Positions 9,001-36,042 of a stretch of 64,000 bases of DNA are shown piece by piece; position 1 is the stretch's first letter, and each line of letters begins with the position of its first letter. The notes under the pieces are model-generated. The model searched no databases. It saw only the letters and a program-made list of their open reading frames with translations, and was not told where the DNA came from. Made by a program: the position numbers and the translations under genes. The stretch is taken from contig JAKLFA010000004.1 of assembly GCA_022711395.1 (NCBI GenBank), positions 70,361-134,360 on the forward strand, given 5' to 3'. Source of the DNA: Candidatus Omnitrophota bacterium. GTDB taxonomy: Bacteria > Omnitrophota > Gorgyraeia > Zapsychrales > JANLHA01.

Positions 9001-9503
9001 TCGACCCATTGCATCAGGACCCCCCCAAAAGCCGTACCCAGGATGATCGCTAAAAATGTCCACATGCCCACATAACCGTTGCCCTGGGAGAGTTCTTTCT
9101 CCTCCAGCATTTCCGGAAGGATCCCGTATTTAGCCGGACCGAAAAATGCGCTCTGCACGGTCATCAAAAAAAGGACTGCGATCATCCAAAACAGCTTCCC
9201 CGACATAAATGCCCAAAGGCCCAACAGCATCACAACGATCTCAAACGCCTTCAATACAACAATAATATTCCGTTTTGAAAAACGGTCAGCGATCTGCCCG
9301 GCATAAGGCGAACACACCAAAAAAGGGATAATAAATAATGCTGAGATCAAGCTCATATAACGGGCATGCATCTGCGGATCTACAAAGATACGGAGCGCAA
9401 ATAATGAAATGACGATCTTAAAAGCATTATCATTAAACGCTCCGAGGAACTGCGTTGCCAGGTAGGACTTAAAAGAACGGCTTTTGCAGCCATGAGACGT
9501 CAT
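6078..9503 (-). CDS. aas: Triple-domain fusion of an MFS lysophospholipid transporter (LplT-like), a PlsC-type acyltransferase and an AMP-binding acyl-ACP synthetase (Aas-like).
   Basis: The N-terminal ~400 aa form a 12-TM MFS region. The middle holds a PlsC HxxxxD acyltransferase motif (CNHVSFVDWALI) and an FAEGGLTRTG block. The C-terminal ~520 aa form an adenylate-forming domain (SSGSTGEPKGVMLTHSNI, GYGATELSP, GWYVTGDIASIDKDGFIKITDR). E. coli Aas has only the last two domains, with LplT as a separate gene. Confidence 0.8.
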   Translation of the reverse strand: MTSHGCKSRSFKSYLATQFLGAFNDNAFKIVISLFALRIFVDPQMHARYMSLISALFIIPFLVCSPYAGQIADRFSKRNIIVVLKAFEIVVMLLGLWAFMSGKLFWMIAVLFLMTVQSAFFGPAKYGILPEMLEEKELSQGNGYVGMWTFLAIILGTAFGGVLMQWVDGDIKRIAWAFVMISMLGTMSSLFIQKTEVVPSRRRFQANFAADFWEYFKRVKAQKVMFLTLLAVNYFWFLGAVFQTNVLLYGKNILALTDIQTSLLLVAVSFGIGIGSLLAGKLSEGKIEFGLVPVGAIGLTVFSLFLGAPALGFSDALFRIFVLGISAGFYTVPLNSFFQKNSPQEERGKYLAVLNASNAFAVLMGAGVMWLLGDAMEFNARQIFFIMGVVSLFGTIYILRTLPDAFLRFFNWVFSHTLYKIRTVGAENIPETGGALLVCNHVSFVDWALIMAATKRHVRFLMHRRFYEHPIYGPLCRVMQAIPVAMEDSPKKIAASLQEARRAVEEGHVVCIFAEGGLTRTGNMLPFSRGFEFIMKGVEAPIIPVNIDSIWGSIFTFDEGTYFWKWPKDFLHPVTVSFGKPMSATSASHEVRLAVQELSAEAFQHRGNEQRPLHLAFLHEAKKRPFKFCMADSTGLKLNYAQALAMALLLSQKLFSEKKTSEREMVGVLLPSSCMASLVNGACFMADKIPVNLNFTASQESLQSAIRQCEMKRIVTSRKFLEKLNMPYDERMIFLEDLDGKIEKGEKVRCFLKALLLPGWVLEKLYVQGHQTGVHELATVIFSSGSTGEPKGVMLTHSNIFSNIEGFYQVGQIRRDDVVMGVLPFFHSFGFTACLCFPVGVGLSVVYHHNPLDAATVGKLVERYKATILIGTPTFFSAYMRKCTPEQFKSLRYAAAGAEKVKETMAREFIEKFGITLFEGYGATELSPIVSMGVPDYISEEGHIRQKGHEFGKVGHPIPGVAAKVIHADSGQLLGYDEEGLLLIKGANVMKGYLKNPEKTAEVLKDGWYVTGDIASIDKDGFIKITDRLSRFSKIGGEMVPHVKIEEEILSALGTSDPVCSVTSVPDEKKGERLVVLYVGDRDVEGLIAKLAERGLPNLWIPKKESFFKIEAIPLLGSGKTDLKRVKQLAQELAGQSQERS

Positions 9504-20821: not shown

Positions 20822-20855
20822 AAAAGCCCTCTTCAGAACGAAGAGGGCTTTTTGA
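20822..20855. terminator. Bidirectional rho-independent terminator between convergent genes.
   Basis: AAAAGCCCTCTTC-agaac-GAAGAGGGCTTTTT: a 9-bp GC-rich stem with a 5-nt loop, flanked by an A-run on one side and a T-run on the other. It serves both the plus-strand small gene and the minus-strand giant gene ending at 20888. Confidence 0.6.
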
Positions 20856-20887: not shown

Positions 20888-23800
20888 TTATAACATCAAT
20901 GCTTCCTGCTCCTCACGGATCATTTGGCTCAATTCACGACCCGGGGCTTCCCCAGAACCCTCATCCGACCCAAGCAAAAACGGCAACGTCTGCACCGGAG
21001 TCGTATTGATAAGGATCGGGACAAATCCTTCAATGCGCATCTCTTTGATGGGCTGTTCCGGCAAAGGCAGCGGGATCCCGCGGTCATCACGGCGGATCTG
21101 CAGGTCCAGAAATTTAGGGTTCAAATCGATACCACCGACCGGAACCCTATCACTTTCACCGGAAGCCCTTCCCAAAACAGCAGAATTGACCATTTCCTGC
21201 TCGCGCATTTCCCGTCGGTCTGCCAAAGACTGCCAGGCCGAGGCCAGTTCCTGGCGCACGGCGCGTTCATAATCGGCACTGACACTCTTTCCGCTGGCAC
21301 GATCAGCATCGATCTGGCGCAATTCTGTTTCTTTAGCAAACACCCTCCTTAAATCCGCCTGATCGGACATCAACCGTTCCCGATTCAATAAAGACAATTT
21401 TTCAGAGAATCTCCCCGGCCCTTCCTGTTTTAAAAACTCCCTGACCTCACTAAAAGTCGCCCCGCCATTAAGATCATACGCCGCCATCACCCAGGCAATA
21501 CTTACAGCATCTTCAGCGGCTTCCCGTGACATTTTAGAAGCTTCCTGCGCCGCAGAAACAACGTCAAACGCGTTTCCAGTCCCCTCAAACAAGCGCTTGA
21601 CCTTTTCTTTATCAGAGGCCTGTATCCCCAGCTCCGTGGCGAACGCTTCAACAGCATGGTCAATGATCGTCGGATTACCATTGGCGGCGACCTGACGGGA
21701 TTCAAAACCTGAAGCCCCGGTCCCATTCAAAACAGCTTCAAAAAGCCGGCCATATTCACGGACCATCGTATGAATATTGACCCTTTCATGGGCGGAGCGA
21801 AACGACCTCTCCATTCCCTTTAAAAGCTCGTCAGAGCCCCGTTCTACGTAATCATAGTATTGCTGCGCCGCCTCGGTCATGTAATCGCCGAGCTGCCGCT
21901 GCGCTTCCCGATGAAAGGTCTCGAGCACTCTCGGATCTTTATTTTCAAATCCTCGAATGACATCATCCAAAGACCACTCCTTAAAAACATCGATCAGCCA
22001 GCCATTCTGACCATGGACCACCCAATCCAACGGCCCACCCGTCGCCGTGGCAATGACCTTACGCCCATTGAACCCAGCGCGCTGATCGCTCGTACCCGAA
22101 GCCTCTCGGGTGTGGCGCGGTAAAACCAGCCAAAAGTCGCTGGCCGAGACTGCCAGCCGCATGATCTCCACACCGGTATCCGGAACAAAAACGATCTTTC
22201 CTTTCAGTTCAGGACGGTTCTGCAGTTCACGAAAACGCCTGGCCCAATCCTTTCCGACATCATCACGCCCAGGCCCGCCGATAAAAAGATTAGACCCTAA
22301 GCCCTTACGCCTCCCCCAAGGCGTGTCATATTCCTGTTCCCGATCTCCCGTGATCCAACGGACCAATTCAAGCAAAAGCCCCTGTTCCTTATATTCCACC
22401 AAGCGGCGTAACGCACCGAATATCGGACGGTTCAGATCAGTGAACTGATTATAACCTTTGCTTCCCAGCCACTGATTGAGGTCTTCCTTGGCCTGCTGCC
22501 CAGACTCAAAAAGGTCCTGTCCGGTGATCTGTTCCATACCCTTTTGATGAATGCGGGACGCCAACTGCGGTGAATACCACTGCTTTGGATCAGAGCCGTT
22601 CTGAACACCGGTCGTCTTCCAGCGTTGATTGGGAAGAACCAGCCTCTTTGTAACTTCAGCGTGTTCTAACGAAACCCCATTAACGACAGATGACATGTGT
22701 GCCAAAGCTTCCGCCGCGTTAACGACCCGATGGTCGCCATCCTGAATGACGATCGAATCAGGGACCAGGTCATTGCCCAGGGCACCTCGAAGCCAGTTCA
22801 CATCATAAAAGACCGGCAGCGCCGCCCGTTCCGGAGTATGCGTTGTCATGACCACACGGGAAGCATCAAAGACGCTCTTTGATCCATTATTCATACTTTT
22901 GAAAAAATCCCGGTCATTCTGCATGGCCACTGCCACAAACAGCATCTGCGGCTCGCTCAAACGGACGATATCCGGGGAGATCCCGACTCTTTTCACCAAT
23001 TCAACAAAAGCCCTTCCGATAAAACCGTATTGCACGATCTGTTTTGTCCCATCGGGATAAATATTCTCAAAGATCTTCGGCTGACGAAGCAAGAACACAG
23101 GCGTGCCGTTGCGGTTAACCCAATACACGTCGACCGGATAATCTTTAGTGTGATTGAACTCCACATTAAACGATAAAGGAACAAGCTCTCCGCGCTCATT
23201 GCGGACCATGACCCTCTTGATCCCCTGTTCGTTATCCCAGTCGATCCTTTGACGATCCTGTCCCTCCTGATAATATTCATACAACGGCATCACGCCGATC
23301 GAAGAAAACTTCCGAAGGTCCCGGTAAGCCCCCCAGGTCTCACCGGTCAAAAACCCAAGGCCGCCTTTCCCCTGAGCGTTTTGCGCTAATCCCTGGAGTT
23401 CAGGCAAAAACGCTTCCAGCGACACATCCGCCACGACTTTTTTTCCGCCGGAGCGCTGAAAAAAATCATCCAACGGTGTTTCCTGAAAGCGCAAAACAGC
23501 CGCATTGGTCGGACGCGAAACATCTTCAACAGCTTCAGGAGTGGCATTTTCCACCAAACCCACATCCCGCCAGGCGCGCGTGGATCCGGGCACGCCCTGC
23601 AAACCCTTGCGCACAAGCCGCGCACTGTTGCGTCCAAGATCTTCCAAACGGCCTCTCAAGCGCCCCGCCTCAACTTCTTTTGTCAAACCTTCAGGGTCAA
23701 ACCCGCCGGAAAAATACCGGCGAGGGATGACCTGCTGAACAGACGGATCGTACTCTTCCTTAATATAGTCGTAGACCCCTTTGCGGAACGCATCCAAATA

Positions 23801-24769
23801 CTGTTCATAGATCTTGTTCTTTATCTCCCGGTCATCGATATCGATCCCCTTGATCTTGTTCTGATCAACATAGACCGTCGACAAAAGACTTTCCTTTAAC
23901 GCGACCTTATACCACGTCGCCAGGACCATCGCATTGTAGATCTGACGCAAGCGGGCGAAATTCTGCCCTTCATTCACTTCTTTTTCGATCTCAGGGATCA
24001 AGACCTCCCGGATGACCTGCGAAGACACATCATTGGCGATCTTCGCATTCTCCTCCTTAAGGTCCTGAAGACCAAACGCTTGATCATTCAACCCTTCTTT
24101 TAAAGCTAAATAATCCTCTTCCAGCATGACCTTAAGGCTGCTTTGGACCACGTAGGCCGCCCCGTCATACTCATAAACAACAGCTTCTTTGGGGACGATC
24201 CATATCTTGTTAAAGGTCGCCATCGGGATCTCGGTCGTCCCAAAGGCCTCTTTAGCTTTTTTATGCACACGCTGCCAAAAATCTTTTCCCAGGCCCTCTT
24301 CGGGATACATCAGGCTTGCTGTCAATTGTTTCAAAAGGTAATCCTGCGCCAAAAGGTCCGTACCCATTTCAGTCACTCCAAAGGACGGCGGAATGATGCG
24401 GTCCCCTTCATATGGAGAAAGGTTAACCCACATCTCCTCTTCAGGAACGGTCAAGGCCGCCAAAAAATAGCGGACCATCTTCAGCGTTTCCTGATCAAGC
24501 GCTTCATCCTTAAGATCGGAATTGCCGGTATCAATAAGAAATGAGAACTGAAGCGGATTGACCGGGTCAGGACGAATACCGGTAATAACAGCAGGAACAT
24601 ACCCGGGGCTGGTGGAAACCATGGTTCCCGGAAGAGGTAAAGATGGTAAAATTTGTGCGGAGGAATTCAGCGGAGGAATTACAAGGGTGAAACAAAAGAT
24701 GAAAACAGTAACTAAACTAATGACGCGTTTAAAATAATGGGCTTGTTCTTTTTTACAAATGCAATTCAT
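20888..24769 (-). CDS. Giant exported multidomain protein: signal peptide, a conserved N-terminal module shared with the next gene, a GT35 alpha-glucan phosphorylase-like core (PLP Lys apparently replaced by Arg), a helical region, and a shared C-terminal PLPLP module.
   Basis: 1293 aa. A Sec-type signal peptide (MNCICKKEQAHYFKRVISLVTVFIFCFTLVIPPLNSSAQ) is present. Residues ~40-360 are about 70% identical to the N-terminal module of the 1570-aa neighbour. GT35 motifs are GGLGFLTGETWG, MTTHTPERAALP, VNGVSLEHAEV and EASGTSDQRAGFNG (consensus EASGT[SG]NMK). The C-terminal GGIDLNPKFLDLQIRRDDRGIPLPLPEQP...GFVPILINTTPV segment matches the neighbour's C-terminus. Confidence 0.8.
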   Translation of the reverse strand: MNCICKKEQAHYFKRVISLVTVFIFCFTLVIPPLNSSAQILPSLPLPGTMVSTSPGYVPAVITGIRPDPVNPLQFSFLIDTGNSDLKDEALDQETLKMVRYFLAALTVPEEEMWVNLSPYEGDRIIPPSFGVTEMGTDLLAQDYLLKQLTASLMYPEEGLGKDFWQRVHKKAKEAFGTTEIPMATFNKIWIVPKEAVVYEYDGAAYVVQSSLKVMLEEDYLALKEGLNDQAFGLQDLKEENAKIANDVSSQVIREVLIPEIEKEVNEGQNFARLRQIYNAMVLATWYKVALKESLLSTVYVDQNKIKGIDIDDREIKNKIYEQYLDAFRKGVYDYIKEEYDPSVQQVIPRRYFSGGFDPEGLTKEVEAGRLRGRLEDLGRNSARLVRKGLQGVPGSTRAWRDVGLVENATPEAVEDVSRPTNAAVLRFQETPLDDFFQRSGGKKVVADVSLEAFLPELQGLAQNAQGKGGLGFLTGETWGAYRDLRKFSSIGVMPLYEYYQEGQDRQRIDWDNEQGIKRVMVRNERGELVPLSFNVEFNHTKDYPVDVYWVNRNGTPVFLLRQPKIFENIYPDGTKQIVQYGFIGRAFVELVKRVGISPDIVRLSEPQMLFVAVAMQNDRDFFKSMNNGSKSVFDASRVVMTTHTPERAALPVFYDVNWLRGALGNDLVPDSIVIQDGDHRVVNAAEALAHMSSVVNGVSLEHAEVTKRLVLPNQRWKTTGVQNGSDPKQWYSPQLASRIHQKGMEQITGQDLFESGQQAKEDLNQWLGSKGYNQFTDLNRPIFGALRRLVEYKEQGLLLELVRWITGDREQEYDTPWGRRKGLGSNLFIGGPGRDDVGKDWARRFRELQNRPELKGKIVFVPDTGVEIMRLAVSASDFWLVLPRHTREASGTSDQRAGFNGRKVIATATGGPLDWVVHGQNGWLIDVFKEWSLDDVIRGFENKDPRVLETFHREAQRQLGDYMTEAAQQYYDYVERGSDELLKGMERSFRSAHERVNIHTMVREYGRLFEAVLNGTGASGFESRQVAANGNPTIIDHAVEAFATELGIQASDKEKVKRLFEGTGNAFDVVSAAQEASKMSREAAEDAVSIAWVMAAYDLNGGATFSEVREFLKQEGPGRFSEKLSLLNRERLMSDQADLRRVFAKETELRQIDADRASGKSVSADYERAVRQELASAWQSLADRREMREQEMVNSAVLGRASGESDRVPVGGIDLNPKFLDLQIRRDDRGIPLPLPEQPIKEMRIEGFVPILINTTPVQTLPFLLGSDEGSGEAPGRELSQMIREEQEALML

Positions 24770-24890
24770 TACACATTCTCCCCTTTAAATCGTTGTGATG
24801 AGATTTAGATGTGTACTATCATTGCCGCCATGGCACCCGCGTCAACCAGATGCCATGACGGTCAATAAACTTTGCAAAGAACAGATTTTT

Positions 24891-27800
24891 TTAATTCAGC
24901 AAAAAGGAAAGATCTCCCTGAGGGCCCGAAGCCCTTTTTTCCCTTTGCTGTGGAGAATCCGCCACCCCCAAAATAAGCGGGAGATTGCGCACCGGTGTCA
25001 TCTCAATGATCACCGGATAGAACCCGTCGATCTTCAATGTCTCAAGCGGCTGCTGCGGCAACGGCAGCGGAACCCCATTCGCATCACGCTCGATGGTCAA
25101 ATTCAAAAATGCCGGATTGAAGTCGATACCACCTTTTTTCCATCTGGCCTGTTCGGCCATCTGAGCAGGGTTCAAAACAGCGGCATTGGTCTCTTGCATA
25201 AACCCTTCCCATTTAGCAATAAAATCCAAACCTTCAGGGATGTCTTTTAAGCTCTTCAGGTCATGGATCAATTCCTGCGGACTATGCCTAAACGCAGCAA
25301 CTTTTCCCGCTGCCGCTAATTGAGTCACATCGCCGGTAACCATTTCGGTGTAAAGGCTGTCACCTTTCACGCGCAGATACCGCGGCAGATTGACCTCCGC
25401 AACGACTTCTTTTAATCCTTTAATGGAATACCAATTACGGAACGCGTTATAGGGCCATTTTTCTTTTCCGGAGCGATCCAAAACCTGCTGAAGATCCGAT
25501 GTTTTTAGCGCTAATGTTTCTGCCAAAAACGTCTTTCCCGTCGGCTTATGGTGCAAATAACTTCCGCCTTTCTGTCCCTTGGGGTTCCCAACAAGCTCGA
25601 TCCCGATAGCGACACCTTTATCCATCTGGTCCATAAAGTAGGCCAAACGGTGAACGCTCCCGACGTCTTCTGTCCACATGGTGAGGTCATTAACACGCTG
25701 CGTGCGGATGACATCAACTCCGCGGGACTCCAAGACATCTAAAAGATTCTGTTCAACTTTGACAAACACCCCCTGTGCATCCATCGTATAAACCTGGCCC
25801 TGCACTTTGAATTGTTCAAGCGCATAGCCATGGCCCGGAGGCAGCTGTTGGCTATTGCCATTAAAGTGCATTTCACCCTGTTCATCGGGAGAAAACCCTT
25901 TAAAAACCCGGTCGGTCAAAATATAAACATTCTCGCGGTTAAAACCATAAAAATCATTGGCAAACAGATCTTTGGCCGCCTCCTCAAAGATCATGTCATT
26001 AAAATGCACAACGATCTTTGTTTTGGCAATGACATCGTTGATGTCCTTTCCTTGCTCCTGGGCCAGTTTTTCAAGGAATTGACGATACGCGATGATCTGG
26101 CGGGGGCCCATTCCCTGATCAGACTCTGCCAATTTGAGTTCTTGATCATATTTTTGGGCTAGATCCTCTAAATACTTCTTCATTCCAGCCTCATCAAAGA
26201 CCTTGGTCTTCTCATTGGTAAATGTCTCCACCAATTTCTTTTGAAGGCTCGCGCGCTGCTTCTCTGTCAGTTTATTGGGACGGCCTAAAAGCGCCGCTAC
26301 AACATCTTTAATTTCGATGCTGTACATGGACCCTAATCCTAACCGGGTCGCAGCCCCGCCGAAATTGAAATGCGGGGTGATCTTGCCTTCTAGATAGGCG
26401 TTACGGGCCTCGGGCAATCGTGCCTCAACAGCCTTGTATTCAGAAACAACGTCCACCTGGCCAGCCTCGAGGTCTTCAGATTTCACAACCTCACCGTTGA
26501 TCCGAAGCGCGTTGACTTCATTCACCACGCGCTCAAGTTCTTCATCCTGCTTCTCTCGAAGGGCCTTGAAAAAGTCCATTTTTCCTTCAGCGCTCATTCG
26601 GGCGAGCAGATCTACGACGTCCTGCCCCATCTTAGCCTGTTCTTCATCGCCTGACAGAACCGCCGCGTTGGTCGGATCTGCCTCCTTGGGAACAAACTCA
26701 TTGTATTGTGCAATATGCTGCATGGCCCGTCCGAGATCCTGCGGGGCCTTCATATCCCGGATCACTTCCGGTTTTTCCTGATCGCTTTTCATATCCTTTT
26801 GATCATTCAACTGAAAAGCGATTACATCATTCGGAGTAAGGGCGAGCTGCGTGATATCTCCCGTCACCATTTCCGTATAAAAATAAAATTTTCCATCTTT
26901 TTCAACGACCCTCAAATACTTTCTCAATCGGGCGTTTGTCAGCATTTGCTTTAAGCCTGTAACTGTATAAAGATTCCGGAATGCATTGTAGGGCCATTCT
27001 TCTTCTCCGCTGTTATTATACAGTCCCGCGTATTCAGGTGATCTCATGGCAAGCGTTTCAACCAGAAAACTCATTCCTGCCCCACCACCTATATTCTCAG
27101 TGACCCATGTCCCACCTTTTTGTTTTCCCGGATTGGCCACAAGTTCAATTCCAACCTTGGCGCCGTCATTTGCAACTTTATCCAGGAAAAACGCAACTCG
27201 TTTAACACTACCGACATCTTCTGTCCATAAAGAAACATCATTCACGCGTTGAGTACGAATCACTTCAGCCGGTGTTTCCCGACCACTTAACAACTGAAGC
27301 AGGGTTTTATCGATCACCAAAGAAAGAACTCCTTTGGAATCCAGCTTCCAAACCTGCTGAACACGGTTGAACTGCTCCAACGCAAACCCGTGCCCAGGAG
27401 GAAGTTTTCCGCTTTTATCTTCAAATTTTGTACCACCATTATCTGTCAGCGAAAATCCCTGAAACACATCATCAACCAAAACATAAACATTTTCGGCATT
27501 AAACCCATAAAATGAATGCGCCTTCAGATCCTCAATGACATCACTGAAAATCTCTCCGTTCAAATGAACAATGATCGGTGCCTGGTTGACAACTTTCTTA
27601 GCCTTCTCGGGATTTGTCCCATCAGGATCGGCTAGTTTCTCAAGAAAGACCCTGTAAGCGATGATCTGACGTGGGCCCATGGGAATATCTTCACGGCCAC
27701 TCTTATTAAATAAATCGAGCTCTTTTGTTAAAGTCGCTTTAAAACTGTCTAAAGCCTGTTGCCGTTGCTCCGCCGTCCACTCTTTCGCATTTTCTTTTTT

Positions 27801-29603
27801 ATATTTATCCGCCAAATCATCCAAGTATTTCTCAACATTGTTTCTCAATCTTTTCTTTTGTTCATCTGTCAAGCCATTCTCTTGCCCAAGGATATCCTTC
27901 ACCGCATCCGTGATCTTGACTCCATACATCGACCCCACAAAACGTGTTGCCCCGCCGCCAAAGTTGAAATGCGGGACCACTTTTCCTTCTAAATAGCCCT
28001 CTTCGGCTTCGGCCAATCTTTCCGCAGATAACGGATAGCGAGCCAAACTATCAACGCCTTTTCCTCTCCCCAAAGACGTTGGATCAATAACTTTTCCTCG
28101 AATACTCACTTTATTAATACGATCAACTATCGTTTCAATCCTTTTCTTCCAAGATTTTACCTCTTCTTCACTATCTCCTGCCGGTCCCTTCTTTATCTCC
28201 TCAGTCAACGCTTCCCAAGCAACAACAGTTTTCCCATTAATCTGCACTCTTTGCTGGACCAACCCCTCAATATCCCGCCCCATATCATCCTGCAACCGAT
28301 GGCGTTCATCATCTAATATGGAAGAATTAACTTCAGCCGCAGTCGCATTCTCAACCAGGGCTGTGGTCAGATCCACATCCATGGACCCTTCCGGTCCCTG
28401 CAAACCTTCGGCGACTAACGCAAGCTGTTCTTGAGAAAGAACTGCTCCATTGGTCCCATCACCGTTGATGCGGCTTGCGCGGATATTGTCCTGCAGCGTC
28501 CGGCCTTGCGCGTCACGCTGCGCGTCAAACCCGCCGGAAAAATACCGTCGGGGCATGAATTGGCCGGTCAAAGGATCTTCTTCCTCACGGATATATTCAT
28601 AAACACCTTTGCGGAAGGCCTCAACATACTGATCATAAATCGCGGTCCGGGTGGCTTCTGAATCTTCCAGATCCACGCCTTTGACCTTGTTCTGATCCGC
28701 GTAAGCCTGACCCAGCAGCGTTTCTTTCAAACTCATCTTGTACCACGTTGCCAAAACCATGGACTGATAGATCTGGCGGAGCTTGGCGAAATTTTCGCCC
28801 TCGTTCACTTCCTTTTCAATTTCAGGGATCAGGACCTCACGGATCACCTCAGAAGAAACACCACTGATCTCCTCAGCGGCATCATTGGTCTTTACGTTCA
28901 TCCCATACTGCGCATTGCCGATATTTTCACGCAAAGCCACATAATCCTCTTCGAGCATCACCTTCATGGAACTTTTCACAAGATAGGCTGCCCCATCTTT
29001 TTCGTAAACGACCGCTTCATTGGGAACGATCCAGATCTTCGTAAAGGTGCTGAGCGGAATATGCGTCGTGCCGAATTCTTTCTGCGCCCGGGCATACACC
29101 CTGTCCCAAAAGGCCTTGCCCAGATCTTTTTCCGGATACATCAAACTGGCCGAAAGCTGCTTTAACAGATAATCCTGGGCCAAGAGGTCCATGGCCATTT
29201 CGGTCTGGCCGAACGATGCCGGGACCACACGATTGCCTTCATAGGGAGACAAGTTGACCCACAGATCCTCTTCCGGAACGGTCAGCGACGCCAAAAAATA
29301 TTTGATCAATCGGACAGATTCTTCCCGAAGGGCCAAAGGATCAGCCTCCTCGTTTCCGGTATTAACAATAAAATGGAACTGCAACGGATTTTCCGGATCA
29401 GGACGGATGCCTTTGATCAAGACCGGAACATAGGTCGGACTGGTTGTGACCATTGTTCCAACGGCCGGCAATGTGGGCAAAATTTGCGCCTGAAGCGCAG
29501 ATGGCGGAATAATAAATGAGTTTAAGAACGTCAGGACAAGCAGGATCCTAAAGGCTTTAGTAAAAACGGTCTTTTCGGCAGAGTGATTCCGGTGCAGAAA
29601 CAT
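24891..29603 (-). CDS. Giant exported multidomain protein: signal peptide, shared N-terminal module, two tandem UDP-glucose-pyrophosphorylase-family (UDPGP-like) nucleotidyltransferase domains, and shared C-terminal PLPLP module.
   Basis: 1570 aa with signal peptide MFLHRNHSAEKTVFTKAFRILLVLTFLNSFIIPPSALQAQ. The two internal repeats (aa ~520-930 and ~1055-1450) each carry PHFNFGG(G/A)ATR, PPGHG, RTQRVND and KGG(T/S) motifs. These resemble the eukaryotic-type UGPase/UAP motifs LNGGLGT, PPGHGD and VKGGTL. The N- and C-terminal modules are paralogous to the 1293-aa protein. The UDPGP family assignment is from motif recall only, hence moderate confidence. Confidence 0.75.
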   Translation of the reverse strand: MFLHRNHSAEKTVFTKAFRILLVLTFLNSFIIPPSALQAQILPTLPAVGTMVTTSPTYVPVLIKGIRPDPENPLQFHFIVNTGNEEADPLALREESVRLIKYFLASLTVPEEDLWVNLSPYEGNRVVPASFGQTEMAMDLLAQDYLLKQLSASLMYPEKDLGKAFWDRVYARAQKEFGTTHIPLSTFTKIWIVPNEAVVYEKDGAAYLVKSSMKVMLEEDYVALRENIGNAQYGMNVKTNDAAEEISGVSSEVIREVLIPEIEKEVNEGENFAKLRQIYQSMVLATWYKMSLKETLLGQAYADQNKVKGVDLEDSEATRTAIYDQYVEAFRKGVYEYIREEEDPLTGQFMPRRYFSGGFDAQRDAQGRTLQDNIRASRINGDGTNGAVLSQEQLALVAEGLQGPEGSMDVDLTTALVENATAAEVNSSILDDERHRLQDDMGRDIEGLVQQRVQINGKTVVAWEALTEEIKKGPAGDSEEEVKSWKKRIETIVDRINKVSIRGKVIDPTSLGRGKGVDSLARYPLSAERLAEAEEGYLEGKVVPHFNFGGGATRFVGSMYGVKITDAVKDILGQENGLTDEQKKRLRNNVEKYLDDLADKYKKENAKEWTAEQRQQALDSFKATLTKELDLFNKSGREDIPMGPRQIIAYRVFLEKLADPDGTNPEKAKKVVNQAPIIVHLNGEIFSDVIEDLKAHSFYGFNAENVYVLVDDVFQGFSLTDNGGTKFEDKSGKLPPGHGFALEQFNRVQQVWKLDSKGVLSLVIDKTLLQLLSGRETPAEVIRTQRVNDVSLWTEDVGSVKRVAFFLDKVANDGAKVGIELVANPGKQKGGTWVTENIGGGAGMSFLVETLAMRSPEYAGLYNNSGEEEWPYNAFRNLYTVTGLKQMLTNARLRKYLRVVEKDGKFYFYTEMVTGDITQLALTPNDVIAFQLNDQKDMKSDQEKPEVIRDMKAPQDLGRAMQHIAQYNEFVPKEADPTNAAVLSGDEEQAKMGQDVVDLLARMSAEGKMDFFKALREKQDEELERVVNEVNALRINGEVVKSEDLEAGQVDVVSEYKAVEARLPEARNAYLEGKITPHFNFGGAATRLGLGSMYSIEIKDVVAALLGRPNKLTEKQRASLQKKLVETFTNEKTKVFDEAGMKKYLEDLAQKYDQELKLAESDQGMGPRQIIAYRQFLEKLAQEQGKDINDVIAKTKIVVHFNDMIFEEAAKDLFANDFYGFNRENVYILTDRVFKGFSPDEQGEMHFNGNSQQLPPGHGYALEQFKVQGQVYTMDAQGVFVKVEQNLLDVLESRGVDVIRTQRVNDLTMWTEDVGSVHRLAYFMDQMDKGVAIGIELVGNPKGQKGGSYLHHKPTGKTFLAETLALKTSDLQQVLDRSGKEKWPYNAFRNWYSIKGLKEVVAEVNLPRYLRVKGDSLYTEMVTGDVTQLAAAGKVAAFRHSPQELIHDLKSLKDIPEGLDFIAKWEGFMQETNAAVLNPAQMAEQARWKKGGIDFNPAFLNLTIERDANGVPLPLPQQPLETLKIDGFYPVIIEMTPVRNLPLILGVADSPQQREKRASGPQGDLSFLLN

Positions 29604-29643
29604 ATTCCCTCCTCAGATTGTGAAAGATAGATGGACTGCTAGA

Positions 29644-29664
29644 TAGAATATTTACTATATTCTA
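29644..29664. promoter_or_regulatory. Perfect inverted repeat TAGAATAT-ttact-ATATTCTA, 41-61 bp upstream of the giant-gene operon start; candidate operator.
   Basis: Exact 8-bp arms, read directly from the sequence. It lies in the 208-bp promoter region of the 1570-aa gene. Confidence 0.3.
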
Positions 29665-29811
29665 AAAGGGGCGTATTAAAAGTATATATTATAGAAAAAC
29701 GGATGGCAACCTTATTTAAAAAAAATAACATGTTGCGGATAAAGAACTTAAGGCGTTTTCGGGCCCGAATAATTAAATATTGCCGCAAGCGCTTCCCTGA
29801 AAATACTCCAA

Positions 29812-31248
29812 TTATTCACAAAAACTTTGCCCGCGACGACACAATTCCTTGGCATATTCGGTCCAAAGTCCTGACCCCCAATAGCGGAAACAGCTGGTTT
29901 GTGACAACAGCAGATACAAAAACGCATTCTGATACGCGCTGGATTGAACTTCTTTTTGGGTTGTGCCCTTAAATTTTCGATGGAATGCCGCACTCAGCTG
30001 ATTAATAGGGTCCATGACGTCCCCATAGCCGGCGACCCAATCCCGGTCATTGGTCCAGGAAGCCCTGTCCAGATTAAAACCCCGGTCTTTCTGTTTGATG
30101 CGGTCAATGGCTTGATCAGCCGCACCGGGGCCGTAGTTGCCGTTCATTTCAGACCAGATCCTGTGTTGATTGATCGGTTGGACAGGCAAAAAGTCCTTCT
30201 CCAAAACCCCTTCTTTTTTCAAAAGATCCAAGTATTCCGAACCGTTCAAACCCACGACACCGGTTGTGCCGACCCCATCAAACCCGATATTATAATCTCT
30301 CGGAAATTCATTCATCATGACCCCGCCGTTTTCCCCATCGCCGATCTGTAAAACATACAAAGGAATATTCTTGCCGGCATAATCTTCACGCCCGCGGCCA
30401 CGGGCCTCGGCCAACGGCTGCATTTGCGCGACAAGCTTAGTGTCCGATCCCTGGGTCTTGACCAGCACCGTGATCTCCAGTGTTTCGCCCAGCGAATTTT
30501 TAGCGATCAAACGATGCGGAAGATGCGGGCGGCGGATGCCTGAACCGTCGGGATTCTGGATCGTATGCTCCTGGACCATCAGCCATTCATATCCGCATTC
30601 TTTGAGCGCCTTGACATATTCATAACATTGATCCGGATGGATCGGAAGATGCATCTCCGGCGGAGAAAAGCCCTTGACCCGGCGGACAGCCTCTTCACCA
30701 AAAACAGCCGCGAAATGTTTGCGCCATGCCATGATATGCAGTTTCAGATCAGGAATAGGTGTCGAGGTCGCCACCGCATGAGACCACGTGGTTCCCAGCC
30801 ACTCGGCGTGCGTGAAATATTTCGGGTCACAAACGATCCCGCGTAATGTTTCGATCGTGTCCGAGGCCCCCATTTGAGGGATCCCCCACAAAAGATTGCC
30901 TGAATAATCGAGCATGATCCGCGGATTTTTTCCCCGGCCGACCAGATCCGGAATGAACTGCCCCATGCGCGTGTAGCACTGCAGAAAGACCGGCGCATTG
31001 TGATTATCGCCGACGCCCTGATTATCCATCATGTGTTTCAGATTCGAGATCAATGAGGCATTGCGCAAGTCACCGGCCCCCGCGGGGATCGTCGGCTGAT
31101 GCATATGCAGCGCGATACCGAAGGATGCCTGCAGATCCTTTAGGCGGACATTCGAAACTTTCGCGTAATCAAAATTCGGCCTTAACGCCTCAACATCTTT
31201 GGGAGTAAAAAAAATATCAGGAAGCCCATTGGAAAGGATACCGTTCAT
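29812..31248 (-). CDS. Glycoside hydrolase family 57 protein (alpha-glucan-active; exact specificity unknown).
   Basis: 478 aa with the GH57 HxHQP signature (ALHMHQPTIP). It sits in a block with the GH57 branching enzyme and the glucan synthase. Confidence 0.6.
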   Translation of the reverse strand: MNGILSNGLPDIFFTPKDVEALRPNFDYAKVSNVRLKDLQASFGIALHMHQPTIPAGAGDLRNASLISNLKHMMDNQGVGDNHNAPVFLQCYTRMGQFIPDLVGRGKNPRIMLDYSGNLLWGIPQMGASDTIETLRGIVCDPKYFTHAEWLGTTWSHAVATSTPIPDLKLHIMAWRKHFAAVFGEEAVRRVKGFSPPEMHLPIHPDQCYEYVKALKECGYEWLMVQEHTIQNPDGSGIRRPHLPHRLIAKNSLGETLEITVLVKTQGSDTKLVAQMQPLAEARGRGREDYAGKNIPLYVLQIGDGENGGVMMNEFPRDYNIGFDGVGTTGVVGLNGSEYLDLLKKEGVLEKDFLPVQPINQHRIWSEMNGNYGPGAADQAIDRIKQKDRGFNLDRASWTNDRDWVAGYGDVMDPINQLSAAFHRKFKGTTQKEVQSSAYQNAFLYLLLSQTSCFRYWGSGLWTEYAKELCRRGQSFCE

Positions 31249-31269
31249 AATAGCCCTCGCGGTAGAATG

Positions 31270-32877
31270 TTACTGAATATAATGTTTGGCGCAATCCATG
31301 TCCGAAAATATATTATCACGCCATTCGACTTCCGCCAACCAATCTTCATCGATCTGGTCTTGCAGAATGTCCTCGTAAAGTTTGGTGAAACGGGCAATGT
31401 GCAACCGCACCCGGCGGTTGGCATACGGGACCATGGTCCCTGATTTCATGATGAACGGCCAATCGCTGGCCTCGGCTAGAAGGAGCTCGCGGGCCGCTTG
31501 GTTCAAAGCACGGCGGACCAAGGTCGGCTGGGGGGTCTTGCGGGCAAATTTGGATTTATATTTAGTAGCGATCTCCACCATGCGTTCCCCGGCCTTATGG
31601 ATATGCCGATAGATCCAGTCATTGCCGCCTTCAAGCCAATATTCACTGTAACCTTTATATCCCCAGCTAGATGTCGAAGGAACAGCCATCTGGTTCGTGG
31701 AATATTCCGCCAGATACTCCGACGGAGTAATGGGCTTCACCGTATCCTGGTCAAAATGCATTTTCCGGAAAAGAAAATCCAGGAACATCGGACCTTCATA
31801 CCACCAATGGCCGTAAAGCTCAGCGTCATACGGCGCAACGATCATGGGTTTGCGGTCCATGTAGCGGGTCAGATGCTCGACCTGCTTCTCACGGTTAAAA
31901 AGAAAGTTTCCCGCGTGCTGCGCGGCCTTCTCCCTGGCCCAATCGGGGCGGTAAGCCTCCTTATATTCGCTCTTGCCTGTGATGCGCCAATATTTAATGC
32001 CGGTATTGACCCGGATCCCCGACGGATGAATGTAGGGCTTGATATAATCGTATTCCAGCTCATGGCCGATATCCCGGTAATATTCACGGTAATCCACGTC
32101 CCCCGGATAGCCTTCCTGAGCGCTCCAGACCTGTTTAGAAGATTCCCAATCACGTCCAAAAGCCGCCACACCTGCCGGCGTATAGATCGGCGCGTAAACA
32201 CTGTAACGTGGCCTCGGGTCAGCATTGATGATCCCGTGCGAATCCACGAAAAAATATCTTAAGCCCGCCTCCTTTAAGATCTCCTCCACGCCCGGCACAA
32301 ACCCGCATTCCGGAAGCCATATCCCTCGGGGTTTACGGTCAAAGACTTTTGTGTAATGCTCGACCGCGACCTGGACCTGCGCCTTGGCGACCTGCGGGTT
32401 CACGCCCAAGATCGGCAAAAACCCATGCGTGGCGCAGCAGGTGATGATCTCAAGGGCCCCGATATCCTGAAAATACTTGAACGCGCTGACAATGTCGCGG
32501 TTCAAATCCTCGGCGAAGAGCTTGCGGAATTCACGGAACCGGTGATTATACATGAGCGCCAGCCCATGATAATGCGGCTCGTAACCCGTGCGATGGATCT
32601 CCTGCTCGGAGAGTTGAATAAGCTTGTCCAGATGGCGAATGTACCGTTCCTGCAGAAGCGGGTCCTGAAGCATATTGATCAACGGCGGCGTCAAAGACAT
32701 CGTGATGCGGAACTTGACCTTGTCCCTCACAAGCCCGTCAAACACCTTTAAAAGGGGAATGTAGGTCTCTGTAATGGCTTCATACAACCAGTTTTCTTCG
32801 AGAAAATATTCTTCTTCAGGGTGGCGGACAAAAGGCAGATGCGCATGTAAAACTAGAGCGAGATATCCTTTGGGCAT
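31270..32877 (-). CDS. GH57-type 1,4-alpha-glucan branching enzyme.
   Basis: The N-terminus LALVLHAHLPFVRHPEEEYFLEENWLYEAITETYIPLL is near-identical in pattern to the Thermus/Thermococcus GH57 branching enzymes. The downstream blocks HGFLPILG, YDAELYGHWWYEGPMFLDFL and LLLAEASDWPFIM also match. Confidence 0.85.
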   Translation of the reverse strand: MPKGYLALVLHAHLPFVRHPEEEYFLEENWLYEAITETYIPLLKVFDGLVRDKVKFRITMSLTPPLINMLQDPLLQERYIRHLDKLIQLSEQEIHRTGYEPHYHGLALMYNHRFREFRKLFAEDLNRDIVSAFKYFQDIGALEIITCCATHGFLPILGVNPQVAKAQVQVAVEHYTKVFDRKPRGIWLPECGFVPGVEEILKEAGLRYFFVDSHGIINADPRPRYSVYAPIYTPAGVAAFGRDWESSKQVWSAQEGYPGDVDYREYYRDIGHELEYDYIKPYIHPSGIRVNTGIKYWRITGKSEYKEAYRPDWAREKAAQHAGNFLFNREKQVEHLTRYMDRKPMIVAPYDAELYGHWWYEGPMFLDFLFRKMHFDQDTVKPITPSEYLAEYSTNQMAVPSTSSWGYKGYSEYWLEGGNDWIYRHIHKAGERMVEIATKYKSKFARKTPQPTLVRRALNQAARELLLAEASDWPFIMKSGTMVPYANRRVRLHIARFTKLYEDILQDQIDEDWLAEVEWRDNIFSDMDCAKHYIQ

Positions 32878-32943: not shown

Positions 32944-34398
32944 TCACGCGGCGGCGTCTTCACATTCAACATTTGAAATTTCGCCGTACTCGGTCTTATC
33001 CCGACCGGCAGCCGTGATGATCGAACGTTCGTGTTTCTTATTAAAAGACACAGCCTTAAAATCCAACGGAATATGGGTATCCGTCGGAAGGGCCATCCGT
33101 AATGTAAACGTCCCGTCTTCGCGCAACGGAATGACCTTATCTCCCCAAGTAACTGTCGCGTTAGGTTCCGTCCGGCCGTAAACGATCAATTCCGTTCCAA
33201 GCTCAAAGAAGAATCCCTCTTGGGGTTTCTGACGCTCCGAAGCGCCCCATGAAGAAACCAGCTCGCTGGCTCCTCCTAAGATCTCAACCGTGGGCCGGAT
33301 CTTTCGCCCGCGCATCCATGTTTCTTCTGATGCGCCTAAAAGCATCTTTTTGAAATAATCATATCCGGGAAGGTCCATATCTTCCAGATATTCCAGCATG
33401 ACATCACCTTCCATATCCGTTGCGATCGGTTGCTGGCCACGGCTTTTGCGGCGCTTCAAGATCTTTCTCAAAAGCGGGAACAAGCGGGAATAATACGCCC
33501 TGATGTCCGCTTCGGTCAAAAAGACCTTGAAACGGCGACCATGCGCCGGAACGGATGCCGGAAGCAAACCTTCTTCTTTCTCTCCGGGTTCAAACGCATA
33601 AACATACGGTTGAACCCCGGGAGCCCCTTCCGCTCCTCCTTCAGCTGCCGCATGTTGAACATCCATCCAGACCAGTTCTGAACGCGGAGAAATATATTCC
33701 CTGGGAGTTGTGACACAATTAGACCGCGCCAACGTGAAGAATCTCCCGTCCGGAGCGCGCAGACCGATATCCGCGCAATATGTCACATTATCGCTCCAAA
33801 GGTTGACGTACCAATTATTGGCATCCCTTCCAACAACCACATCAAACCAATGATTGGCGTTAGTGCCGTTGAAATCCACGAACGTCACATCATAAAGCCG
33901 CAGAACATGCACGCAGCGGCCCACTTCATCGCCGATCATAGCCCGCACGTCATCAACCGAAGAAGAGGCGATCTCCCAATACGCATGCACCCAATGCGGA
34001 TCACGCGCCAGAAGAGTGATGCTCGTAGACCCATAATTCTCCGGCATGATCTCGCTGTCCACAAAAACAGCTTTTTTAACACGGCTGACATGATCTAAAT
34101 TGTTCTGGATCATCCCCTGGATCTTAGGATGGTTCATACTCCTGGCAAGGGCGGATTCGACCCTGGCAGACGGCTCCTTGGGCAATGATGCTTTTTTGGT
34201 TGAGCGGGATTTTGCAACCGTAGACTTGACCCTCGGCTTCTTAATCGTTTCCTTTTTAACCGCTGCGGTCTTTGATGATGCCTTTTTCACAGCAGGCTTC
34301 TTGGCAGTTGCTTTTTTTAAAACTTTTTTTATGACTTTTTTGACTGTATCATCCGCCACCATTGACTCCTTAGGTTCCGTAAATTGACAAGACCTCAT
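32944..34398 (-). CDS. Protein with a Lys-rich histone-H1-like N-terminal tail, a DUF4912-like domain and a C-terminal beta-sandwich.
   Basis: The N-terminal tail is KKVIKKVLKKATAKKPAVKKASSKTAAVKKETIKKPRVKSTVAKSRSTKK. DPHWVHAYWEIASSSVDD resembles DUF4912, which I recall as frequently adjacent to GH57 genes. The C-terminal region reads FFFELGTELIVYGRTEPNATVTWGDKVIPLREDGTFTLRMALP. Confidence 0.45.
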   Translation of the reverse strand: MRSCQFTEPKESMVADDTVKKVIKKVLKKATAKKPAVKKASSKTAAVKKETIKKPRVKSTVAKSRSTKKASLPKEPSARVESALARSMNHPKIQGMIQNNLDHVSRVKKAVFVDSEIMPENYGSTSITLLARDPHWVHAYWEIASSSVDDVRAMIGDEVGRCVHVLRLYDVTFVDFNGTNANHWFDVVVGRDANNWYVNLWSDNVTYCADIGLRAPDGRFFTLARSNCVTTPREYISPRSELVWMDVQHAAAEGGAEGAPGVQPYVYAFEPGEKEEGLLPASVPAHGRRFKVFLTEADIRAYYSRLFPLLRKILKRRKSRGQQPIATDMEGDVMLEYLEDMDLPGYDYFKKMLLGASEETWMRGRKIRPTVEILGGASELVSSWGASERQKPQEGFFFELGTELIVYGRTEPNATVTWGDKVIPLREDGTFTLRMALPTDTHIPLDFKAVSFNKKHERSIITAAGRDKTEYGEISNVECEDAAA

Positions 34399-35530
34399 CC
34401 GCTATAATGTCCCATGAAAACACGGACTCAGCTGCGATGCGGCCATTACGGCCCATCCAACGGGCATCATCAAAATCTTCGAACAGCGTCCCGATCCCCC
34501 AGGCGATCGATTCCGGATTATCAGAAATCTTCAGTCCATTGACCTCATGCCAGACGATCTCTGAAGGACCGCCTTTGTCGCTTGCCACAACAGGCTTACC
34601 AGCGCTCCAGGCCTCCAGGATCACGATCCCGAACGGCTCGTTGCGGCTGGGAACGCAAACACAATCCGTCGCCTTAAAGAGATCCTTCAGCTTCCATCCA
34701 TTGACATGGCCCAAGAACCGGCAGGCATGCTTAACGCCCATGTGAAGGGCCTGCTCCTCAACCTGCCGCCTCATTTCGCCATCCCCGGCAAAAACAAATT
34801 TTGTGTTGGGATAATAATTCAAAACATACGGGATCGCGCTTACCAAAAGGTCCACACCCTTTTGATAGACCATGCGCCCCACGAACAAAACCATCGGGTC
34901 CATCGGCCCAATATCATACATCCTCTTAACGCCGGCCGGCTCGATCCAGCCGTCAAACTGGCGATAATCAATCCCGTTATAGACCACATCCACCTTCTCA
35001 TTCGGCGTGCTGTAGATCCATTGCACTTCATTTTTTAAGGCATGCGAAACAGCGATCACATGGTCTGCTTCATAACAAGCTTCCCATTCAATATGGCGAA
35101 TTCGCTCAGAATTGCCTCCAAAGAAATTGTTTCCGCAACGCCCATACTCTGTTGAATGGATCGTAAAAACCGTATGATGCGCCCTTCCCTTTTTAATCCA
35201 ATACATTGCAGGGGCCGCAAGCCAGTCATGCGCATGGATCACGTCAAAACGCCCGACATGGTCTTCTGTTTCAAAAAATGAATTGCAAAAAGACCGGCAC
35301 ATATTATGGATCTCTTCAATAAAATTTTGATTGGAATCAAAAGGGCAGCGGTGATAATGAACACCGTGTATGCATTCATGACGCGCGTGATTAGGGCGTC
35401 CCATCCGGGTAAAAACATGAACTTCATGTCCCTTACGCTGAAGGGCGCAAGCGAGTTCTGTCACATGAAAGGCCACCCCTCCAATATAGATCGAATGAAC
35501 AGCCTCCCAAGACAAAAGTGCAATACGCAT
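34370..35530 (-). CDS. GT4-family retaining glycosyltransferase, probable alpha-glucan (glycogen) synthase.
   Basis: The N-terminus MRIALLSWEAVHSIYIGGVAFHVTELACALQRKGHEVHVFT is typical of the GT-B glycogen/glucan synthases found next to GH57 branching enzymes. The C-terminal GT-B half carries E..G motifs (LEAWSAGKPVVASDKGG). Confidence 0.6.
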   Translation of the reverse strand: MRIALLSWEAVHSIYIGGVAFHVTELACALQRKGHEVHVFTRMGRPNHARHECIHGVHYHRCPFDSNQNFIEEIHNMCRSFCNSFFETEDHVGRFDVIHAHDWLAAPAMYWIKKGRAHHTVFTIHSTEYGRCGNNFFGGNSERIRHIEWEACYEADHVIAVSHALKNEVQWIYSTPNEKVDVVYNGIDYRQFDGWIEPAGVKRMYDIGPMDPMVLFVGRMVYQKGVDLLVSAIPYVLNYYPNTKFVFAGDGEMRRQVEEQALHMGVKHACRFLGHVNGWKLKDLFKATDCVCVPSRNEPFGIVILEAWSAGKPVVASDKGGPSEIVWHEVNGLKISDNPESIAWGIGTLFEDFDDARWMGRNGRIAAESVFSWDIIADEVLSIYGT

Positions 35531-35532
35531 CT

Positions 35533-35995
35533 CTAAACAAGCTCCTTTACCGAATTTAAGGTGCCATGCGGGTTGAATACCGTGGCCTTGTTATGAGGAT
35601 CAATCTGCCATTCTCCATCCACAAAAAATTTATACTCATAACGTCCAGGCCCGGGCAGGGTAACCTTTCGGCGCCAGACACCATCTTTAAACCGTTTGAG
35701 CGGGATCTTGCGGTTCCATCCCGTAAAATCACCAATAACCGCAACTTCAGAAGCGTTCGGGCATGGCCAGATAAAATCAATGGCCTTCTCTTCTTTGGAA
35801 GAATCCCCTTTCATCAGTTCATCAGCCTTAACACCAAGAACTTTCGCAATATCTTTAAGCACAGACGCTTTCAGCTCTCGTTTGTTTGATTCCCACAAGC
35901 AAATCGCCTGACGTGATACGCCAAGCTCTTCAGCTAATTTTTTTTGAGTGAATTTTCGCTTTTGTCTGACTCGTTTGAGATTTTCACCGAACATA
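35533..35995 (-). CDS. XRE-family HTH transcriptional regulator fused to a CBM48/AMPK-beta-type glycogen-binding domain.
   Basis: The HTH is LKRVRQKRKFTQKKLAEELGVSRQAICLWESNKRELKASVLKDIAKVLGVKADELM. The C-terminal domain (WPCPNASEVAVIGDFTGWNRKIPLKRFKDGVWRRKVTLPGPGRYEYKFFVDGEWQIDPHN) matches the early-set glycogen-binding fold (CBM48 / isoamylase N-terminal domain) of AMPK beta and GlgB N-termini. The track ORF starts at 36030. I prefer Met13 (ATG at 35995), which has a GAGGA RBS 6 nt upstream. Confidence 0.7.
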
Positions 35996-36021
35996 GATGT
36001 CCTCACATGATGAACAGAAAA

Positions 36022-36042
36022 TGTTAACAAGGCGTTAACATC
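36022..36042. promoter_or_regulatory. Perfect inverted repeat ATGTTAAC-aaggc-GTTAACAT in the 5' leader of the XRE-CBM48 regulator gene; candidate autoregulatory operator.
   Basis: Exact 8-bp arms, located 27-47 bp upstream of the preferred start codon and downstream of the putative promoter. Confidence 0.4.

Follow-up and report, generated by a model that had tools for sequence, protein, structure and literature searches.

A tandem pair of pyrophosphorylase-like domains in an Omnitrophota protein: a probable double nucleotidylyltransferase of alpha-glucan metabolism

What does a bacterial protein do with two consecutive copies of a domain that recalls the eukaryotic-type UDP-sugar pyrophosphorylases, placed behind an N-terminus that looks like an export signal? 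The question is raised by a gene at positions 24891-29603 of a 64,000-nucleotide stretch of a Candidatus Omnitrophota genome (contig JAKLFA010000004.1, positions 70,361 to 134,360; hereafter the window). Its product is 100% identical to the NCBI entry 'hypothetical protein, partial [Candidatus Omnitrophota bacterium]' (P0001). An earlier reading, made from the sequence alone (the sequence-only reading), had described the repeats as an internal duplication within a secreted giant protein, a size label that is overstated for 1570 amino acids (aa), and had asked how such domains could find a nucleoside triphosphate (NTP) outside the cell. We estimate a probability of about 60% that each repeat is a complete and probably active sugar-1-phosphate nucleotidylyltransferase, belonging to a divergent sister family of the UGP, UAP and USP pyrophosphorylases, and that the linked pair serves alpha-glucan metabolism.

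The duplication is evident at the protein level. Every motif listed by the sequence-only reading was found exactly twice, with about 520 residues between the copies of PHFNFGG (aa 544 and 1077), MGPRQIIAYR (aa 642 and 1165) and PPGHG (aa 735 and 1255); IRTQRVND (aa 782 and 1299), QKGG (aa 828 and 1344) and WPYNAFRN (aa 870 and 1383) are likewise paired. Self-comparison of the whole protein with BLAST gave the diagonal only, and the halves were aligned as separate pieces. BLASTP of aa 441-1000 against aa 1001-1570 returned one alignment only, 514 columns long, with identity at 41% and positives at 60% (E = 6e-122), and identity by MAFFT was 46%; the former estimate of about 50% was slightly high. 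The repeats had been given as roughly 400 aa within 25254-28046 (aa 520-1450), but the units are larger, at about 475 aa (aa 489-999 and 1023-1495). Matching between the copies at the DNA level is confined to the three best-conserved blocks (51-87 nucleotides (nt), 70-77% identity, spacing 1539-1599 nt), and the same two copies are present in the two nearest orthologues, P0002 (82% identity overall) and P0003 (55%). Because DNA matching survives only in the most conserved blocks, the duplication is old and cannot be put down to assembly.

The identity of the repeated domain is best approached through its fold. Copy 2 was modelled with AlphaFold2 from an alignment of 20 sequences, and the model reached a predicted local distance difference test score (pLDDT) of 90.3 and a predicted template-modelling score (pTM) of 0.90. 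The top 50 matches of this model in a Foldseek search of the PDB were all eukaryotic-type UDP-sugar pyrophosphorylases (best E = 1.3e-16), including UAP1/AGX from A. fumigatus, human, mouse, Candida and an insect, UGP from yeast, plant and A. fumigatus, and Leishmania USP. Judged by the model, the overall fold lies nearest to UGP/UAP/USP and not to the short GalU, RmlA, GlgC and GlmU nucleotidyltransferases; PF00483, the family of the GalU/RmlA/GlgC type, failed both as a sequence match and as the best structural match. A family profile searched against PDB sequences had UAP1/AGX chains as its best seven matches (E = 0.0015-0.0045), aligning F-x-F-[AG]-G-A-A-T-R-L with LLAGGQGTRLG and LP[PY]GHG with APDGNGG. 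This register agrees with the published AGX1 numbering of Q196 and G222-N223, and is consistent with the Gly-rich nucleotide-binding (NB) loop of AGX1, L108-x2-G111-x-G113-T114-x-L116. Sequence similarity is low throughout: phmmer found no match to the whole protein among PDB sequences, and identity to solved pyrophosphorylases, including UAP1/AGX1 (PDB 1jv1, 6g9w, 8yp3; PF01704), is just 12-17%. For UGP (PDB 3gue, 3r2w, 2i5k, 2icx) and USP (3oh0), no sequence homology to the repeat was detectable with Pfam tools. The eukaryotic-type UGPase/UAP resemblance proposed earlier holds for fold and motifs but does not extend to Pfam membership; the domain resembles the eukaryotic-type pyrophosphorylases by fold and motif only and forms a separate, unclassified family.

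Neither copy looks degenerate. In an alignment of 140 full-length domain instances, 31 columns are conserved at 80% or more, and the two copies of the window match the consensus at all 31. The conserved set includes the NB-loop Gly and Arg, the H-G of PPGHG, RxND, K-G-G, a Glu, an Asn, G-D and D-x-K. The key residues are G550, R554, D711, H738, G739, R786, N788, D789, K829, E849, N873, G915, D916, D950 and K952 in copy 1, and G1083, R1087, D1231, H1258, G1259, R1303, N1305, D1306, K1345, E1362, N1386, G1424, D1425, D1448 and K1450 in copy 2. Across the family, conservation of the NB-loop residues G550/G1083 and R554/R1087 is 96%, and Ala stands at the position of AGX1 G113. The P-x-G-[HN]-G loop is represented by the two PPGHG blocks, aligned to AGX1 P220-G224, whose His and Gly are conserved at 97% and 91%, respectively. 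K829/K1345 of Q-K-G-G (94%) and K952/K1450 of D-x-K (98%) follow in the expected order; in the known enzymes, the catalytic or phosphate-binding lysines are the KGG lysine of UGP and, in AGX1, a lysine of the K407 type close to where the core ends on its C-terminal side. The sequence-only reading had proposed to inspect the NB loop and the catalytic Lys; the NB-loop Gly and Arg and both candidate lysines are kept in both copies.

Compared with the known pyrophosphorylases, the repeat domain is an unclassified variant of a familiar enzyme kind that occurs as an intact tandem pair. Where UAP1/AGX1 has the loop G-Q-G-T-R and the motif GNG, the repeat has G-A-A-T-R and GHG; its NB loop has an Arg, like that of UAP, whereas the NB loop of UGP reads GTSMG. 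The 14-member clade that contains both copies also carries an extra helical insert of about 80 aa after the NB loop. A clade-specific loss of a basic residue after this loop (AGX1 K122-like) was considered and rejected, as the family shows no conservation in this column, which makes it uninformative. In contrast to UAP1/AGX1, two domain copies lie here within one multi-module protein, and the tandem is covalent, whereas UGP oligomers consist of separate chains. Parallels are offered by the small and large subunits of ADP-glucose pyrophosphorylase (AGPase) and by GMPPB/GMPPA (PDB 7d72), in which two diverged paralogous nucleotidyltransferase units act together, as the two copies probably do here; AGPase feeds alpha-glucan synthesis, the likely field of the present protein too.

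The family is small. Its profile, searched against 1.84 billion cluster representatives, retrieved only 364 proteins at E<=1e-3, and the family therefore stays apart from the large PF01704 family. Its members stand alone, at about 430-550 aa, or form domains within proteins of up to 7679 aa, and they occur in species-representative genomes of Omnitrophota, Elusimicrobiota (including Endomicrobium), Goldiibacteriota and Eisenbacteria. Sources that name standalone members call them 'hypothetical protein', and no precomputed Pfam domain is listed for any of them; among 10 of them searched with Pfam hmmscan, P0252 alone matched PF01704, at 16.5 bits (gathering score 22 bits). The genes of standalone relatives adjoin a ROK kinase and a LacI regulator or lie within an NDP-sugar/polysaccharide cluster. 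In other homologues the domain is fused to phosphoglucomutase (P0004, P0007, P0013, P0014, P0021), hexokinase (P0015) or NDP kinase (P0005), enzymes that make glucose-1-phosphate and regenerate NTP. The sequence-only reading had pointed out that prokaryotes normally use the unrelated GalU-type enzyme; PF01704-type enzymes are indeed less common in bacteria but are present there, and other Omnitrophota proteins carry Pfam-detectable PF01704 domains.

The gene context points to alpha-glucans (the table lists the features). The core of the downstream protein matches TIGR02094 (E = 8e-26, below the model cutoff) and alpha-glucan phosphorylases in the PDB (E = 3e-8). It contains GKGGLG (aa 467-472) and EASGTSDQR (aa 889-897), the latter being the alpha-glucan phosphorylase signature with Arg in place of the lysine that binds pyridoxal phosphate. 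This GT-B protein may be an NDP-sugar-using synthase or an atypical phosphorylase. In another Omnitrophota metagenome-assembled genome (L002), the GH57 branching enzyme, the GH57-like gene, the two-copy protein and the GT-B protein follow in the same order. Because the residues are intact, the cluster is one of alpha-glucan genes and the fusions are to phosphoglucomutase, hexokinase and NDP kinase, a double pyrophosphorylase for NDP-hexose, probably NDP-glucose, is the most likely function. Each repeat would catalyse NTP + hexose-1-phosphate <-> NDP-hexose + pyrophosphate, and the two copies would probably act as a covalently linked pair, either as a pseudo-dimer or with divided roles. NDP-glucose would likely be made, or reversibly consumed, for the downstream GT-B enzyme resembling a glucan synthase or phosphorylase. 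The N- and C-terminal modules shared by the two proteins (N-module and C-module) would probably tether both to a common membrane site or assembly; as the location of the domains we favour the cytoplasmic face or a cytoplasm-like compartment.

Table. Positions of the two-copy gene, its parts and the neighbouring cluster genes in the window.
Feature	Position	Strand	Description	Basis
Whole gene	24891..29603	-	1570 aa; order: signal-like helix, N-module, linker, copy 1, copy 2, C-module	Open reading frame list and translation
Signal-like N-terminus	29484..29603	-	aa 1-40	Kyte-Doolittle scan, AlphaFold2 helix 10-30, homologue conservation
N-module	28524..29483	-	aa 41-360	Motifs WVNLSPYE, DLLAQDY.LKQL, FNKIWIVP, PRKYFSGG
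Copy 1, UDPGP-fold domain	26607..28139	-	aa 489-999; core of the family hidden Markov model (HMM) aa 525-964	hmmsearch domain E=1.6e-125
Copy 2, UDPGP-fold domain	25119..26537	-	aa 1023-1495; family-HMM core aa 1058-1462	
C-module	24957..25133	-	aa ~1491-1549	KGGIDFNP...LPLP...IDGF.PVI
Helix-turn-helix + CBM48 regulator	35533-36030	-		Pfam
GT4/GT5 glycosyltransferase	34370-35530	-		Pfam
DUF4912	32944-34398	-		Pfam
GH57 branching enzyme	31270-32877	-		Pfam
GH57-like gene	29812-31248	-		Pfam
Downstream gene	20888-24769	-	1293 aa; N-module and C-module around GT-B core	
Terminator-like hairpin	20822..20852	-	14-bp stem, then T-rich stretch, just 3' of downstream gene	Consensus scan

Several observations weigh against this double pyrophosphorylase. 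Pfam hmmscan, proposed earlier as a check, matched neither PF01704 nor any nucleotidyltransferase family in the whole protein at E<=1, and none of 20 family domains matched PF01704 at E<=10; strict membership in that family therefore fails. NCBIfam likewise gave no match to the repeat domain. A profile comparison with hhalign between the family alignment and Pfam-detectable Omnitrophota PF01704 domains (eight aligned), and with full-length P0032, returned a probability below 1%, which is no usable evidence, even if the PxGHG motif was aligned. The equivalence of K1345 and K1450 to the catalytic lysines of UGP and UAP is suggested by motif order. The column aligned to AGX1 Q196, the uracil contact of that enzyme, holds Gln in 90 of the 140 family domains and Asp in both window copies (D711, codon nt 27469-27471; D1231, codon nt 25909-25911). 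Asp occupies this column throughout the 14-member clade of both copies, with Val in copy 1 of P0003 as the lone exception. Because Asp replaces Gln there, the nucleotide may not be UTP. The enzyme cores are 48-92% identical between orthologues, compared with 88-98% for the N-module and 87-90% for the neighbouring GH57 genes, which indicates weaker constraint on the cores. Finally, by the positive-inside rule, the Sec-like N-terminus would put the domains on the non-cytoplasmic side of the membrane, where they would be separated from NTPs.

The alternative that survives best, which we nevertheless consider unlikely, is that catalysis is confined to one copy, the other being a pseudo-enzyme with a regulatory or substrate-binding role, as in the large and small subunits of AGPase or in GMPPA/GMPPB. 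The history of the duplication bears on this point. In a rough neighbour-joining tree, the phylogeny that the sequence-only reading had called for, both copies fall within one 14-leaf clade without being sister to each other. Among the three orthologues the first copies cluster, as do the second copies of our protein and P0002, and the second copy of P0003 lies outside the clade. Because orthologous copies group together, the duplication predates these species, and the histories of the two copies have long been separate. Rates also appear unequal towards P0002, to which copy 1 is 70%, copy 2 92% and the N-module 98% identical. However, this asymmetry is gone in the comparison with P0003 (51% for copy 1, 48% for copy 2 and 88% for the N-module), and both copies retain all of the family-conserved residues. 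Among 128 family proteins, 14 share the two-copy architecture. The copies pair as sisters in P0121 and in P0122, which represent independent duplications, and the copies of P0005 and of P0126 appear identical, with equal domain scores and, for P0005, equal BLAST statistics. Because duplication recurs, an advantage of the linked pair is suggested.

The faster divergence of the enzyme regions can also be followed along the locus. Between L002 and window positions 20888-32877, identity is 87-90% for the GH57 genes, 88% for the N-module, about 48-51% for the pyrophosphorylase cores and 49% for the GT-B core. The enzyme regions enclosed by N- and C-modules evolve much faster than the free neighbours.

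The N- and C-modules, combined with the export-like signal, are the most unusual aspect of the protein and more puzzling than the duplication. The N-terminus has a basic start, one hydrophobic segment (aa ~13-38) and then PP...ALQA|Q, with no second segment in a Kyte-Doolittle scan; AlphaFold2 predicts a helix at residues 10-30, and A39 and Q40 hardly vary among 20 homologues. By these features aa 1-40 resembles a Sec signal peptide or signal anchor. The N-module (~320 aa) is common to the downstream neighbour (57% identity) and to more than 3000 Omnitrophota proteins, with 50-62% identity in all 120 homologues listed. The C-module (~60 aa, GGID[FL]NP), which nearly all N-module proteins have as well, ends about 100 of the 120 listed homologues (45-67% identity by BLASTP) and is 57% identical in the neighbour. 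Searches of Pfam, NCBIfam and the PDB gave no match for the N-module, whose AlphaFold2 model (pLDDT 64) found nothing in the PDB with Foldseek (best E = 0.02, probability 0.11), and Pfam gave none for the C-module. The latter was considered as a type IX secretion C-terminal domain and rejected: the Por_Secre_tail match of P0039 is internal (aa 1068-1139), and the C-modules of the window match nothing. We define here an unnamed class of N/C-module proteins, with a signal-like helix, both modules and a variable enzyme middle, to which our protein belongs. Its cargo includes phosphoglucomutase, PGK, NDK, hexokinase, enolase, GAPDH, aldolase and PPDK, and also a response-regulator receiver, a sigma54-activator AAA+ domain, GGDEF and DnaJ.

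Two observations on composition may be recorded. The 1570-aa protein has 0 cysteines, and the 1293-aa neighbour has 3. The hexapeptide TN[AG]AVL occurs at each module boundary, namely after the N-module (aa 385), after copy 1 (aa 979) and after copy 2 (aa 1473; nt ~28435-28449, 26653-26667 and 25171-25185, respectively), and after the N-module of the neighbour (aa 422). Across the 120 homologues it appears 17 times, most often in close relatives, where shuffling would lead one to expect about 3. Possible roles are those of a linker, a processing site or a recombination junction.

A second alternative takes the N-terminus at face value. The protein would be truly exported to the periplasm, the surface or a host or prey cell, where it might, for example, bind or cleave sugar nucleotides or glucans, or act as an effector that rewires host sugar metabolism. 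In its favour are the basic n-region, the hydrophobic core of about 18-20 residues, the PP and the near-invariant A-Q, which would suit a signal-peptidase I site, and the protein has no other hydrophobic segment and no cysteine. According to two preprints, most long Omnitrophota proteins have a predicted signal peptide or transmembrane (TM) helices, and glycolytic-type domains lie in predicted extracellular regions (10.64898/2026.06.07.730766; 10.1101/2023.11.21.568195). Against this, none of the five upstream cluster genes encodes a signal peptide (N-termini inspected), and much of the cargo of the same modules is strictly cytoplasmic in kind: receiver, sigma54-activator AAA+, DnaJ, NDK, PGK and hexokinase domains all depend on ATP or on partners in the cytoplasm. 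Standalone family members also look cytoplasmic, as 23 of 25 have no N-terminal hydrophobic segment. West-Roberts et al. themselves caution that the predicted localisation may be wrong, and the published work on long Omnitrophota proteins leaves the same tension open. We consider true export distinctly improbable; the label 'secreted' fits the Sec-like N-terminus but neither the operon partners nor most standalone members, and is unproven. The puzzle of extracellular NTP probably stems from this ambiguous localisation and not from a property of the enzyme.

The long Omnitrophota proteins deserve comparison with ours. They come from the same phylum, string sugar enzymes together (starch synthase, GT1, phosphoglucomutase and kinases) and have predicted signal or TM segments, but the classes described there comprise at least 10,000 aa, far above the 1570 aa here (10.64898/2026.06.07.730766; 10.1101/2023.11.21.568195). 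Term searches of both preprints returned no mention of this pyrophosphorylase-like family, no PF01704 and no N-module/C-module pair (10.64898/2026.06.07.730766; 10.1101/2023.11.21.568195). Literature searches gave general accounts of such proteins and nothing on this domain family or the modules. In loci of Elusimicrobiota (L004, L007), Goldiibacteriota (L008), Eisenbacteria (L017) and Omnitrophota (L016), the family domain lies within open frames that run past the fetched DNA and count from 2700 to more than 4400 codons. Because the domain lies in such frames in other phyla, very long proteins that string metabolic enzymes together extend beyond Omnitrophota.

A broader proposal, which we regard as a long shot, is that the N/C-module pair and the conserved Sec-like signal form a phylum-wide targeting or assembly system that relocates normally cytoplasmic enzyme sets. 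If this were true, the enzymes would be taken to an internal compartment bounded by a membrane, to an enlarged periplasm, to the cell surface or into a host or prey cell, and the relocated sets would include NDP-sugar/glycogen synthesis, as here, along with glycolysis, NDP kinase and signalling domains. In that case the tandem pyrophosphorylase would form, together with its GT-B neighbour, a unit for glucan synthesis outside the ordinary cytoplasm. Because it combines a tractable enzyme, conserved modules and a clear operon context, this protein is a good test case for whether enzymes with export signals really lie outside the cytoplasm in Omnitrophota.

That the repeats are not nucleotidyltransferases at all, but another GT-A-like enzyme such as a glycosyltransferase or a structural repeat with chance motif likeness, would fit the lack of Pfam and NCBIfam matches and the low identity to solved pyrophosphorylases, but is very improbable.

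The double pyrophosphorylase also matters for genome interpretation. Because the family is invisible to Pfam and NCBIfam and its members are annotated only as 'hypothetical', the step that supplies the NDP-sugar for glycogen or polysaccharide synthesis may be counted, in error, as absent when the metabolism of Omnitrophota, Elusimicrobiota and their relatives is reconstructed. The clade-specific change from Gln to Asp at the base-recognition position possibly brings a different nucleotide specificity.

Three minor features of the window complete the description. The terminator-like hairpin is a strong one and probably marks where the transcription unit ends. The gene that heads the cluster (35533-36030) encodes a 165-aa protein in which an XRE-type helix-turn-helix is combined with a CBM48/AMPK glycogen-binding module; this protein could be a glucan-sensing transcription regulator. 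At 6078-9503, on the reverse strand, a 1141-aa fusion combines a major facilitator superfamily transporter, an acyltransferase and an AMP-binding enzyme in an LplT-Aas-like arrangement; this combination, of the lysophospholipid transporter/acyltransferase-acyl-ACP synthetase type, is probably ordinary.

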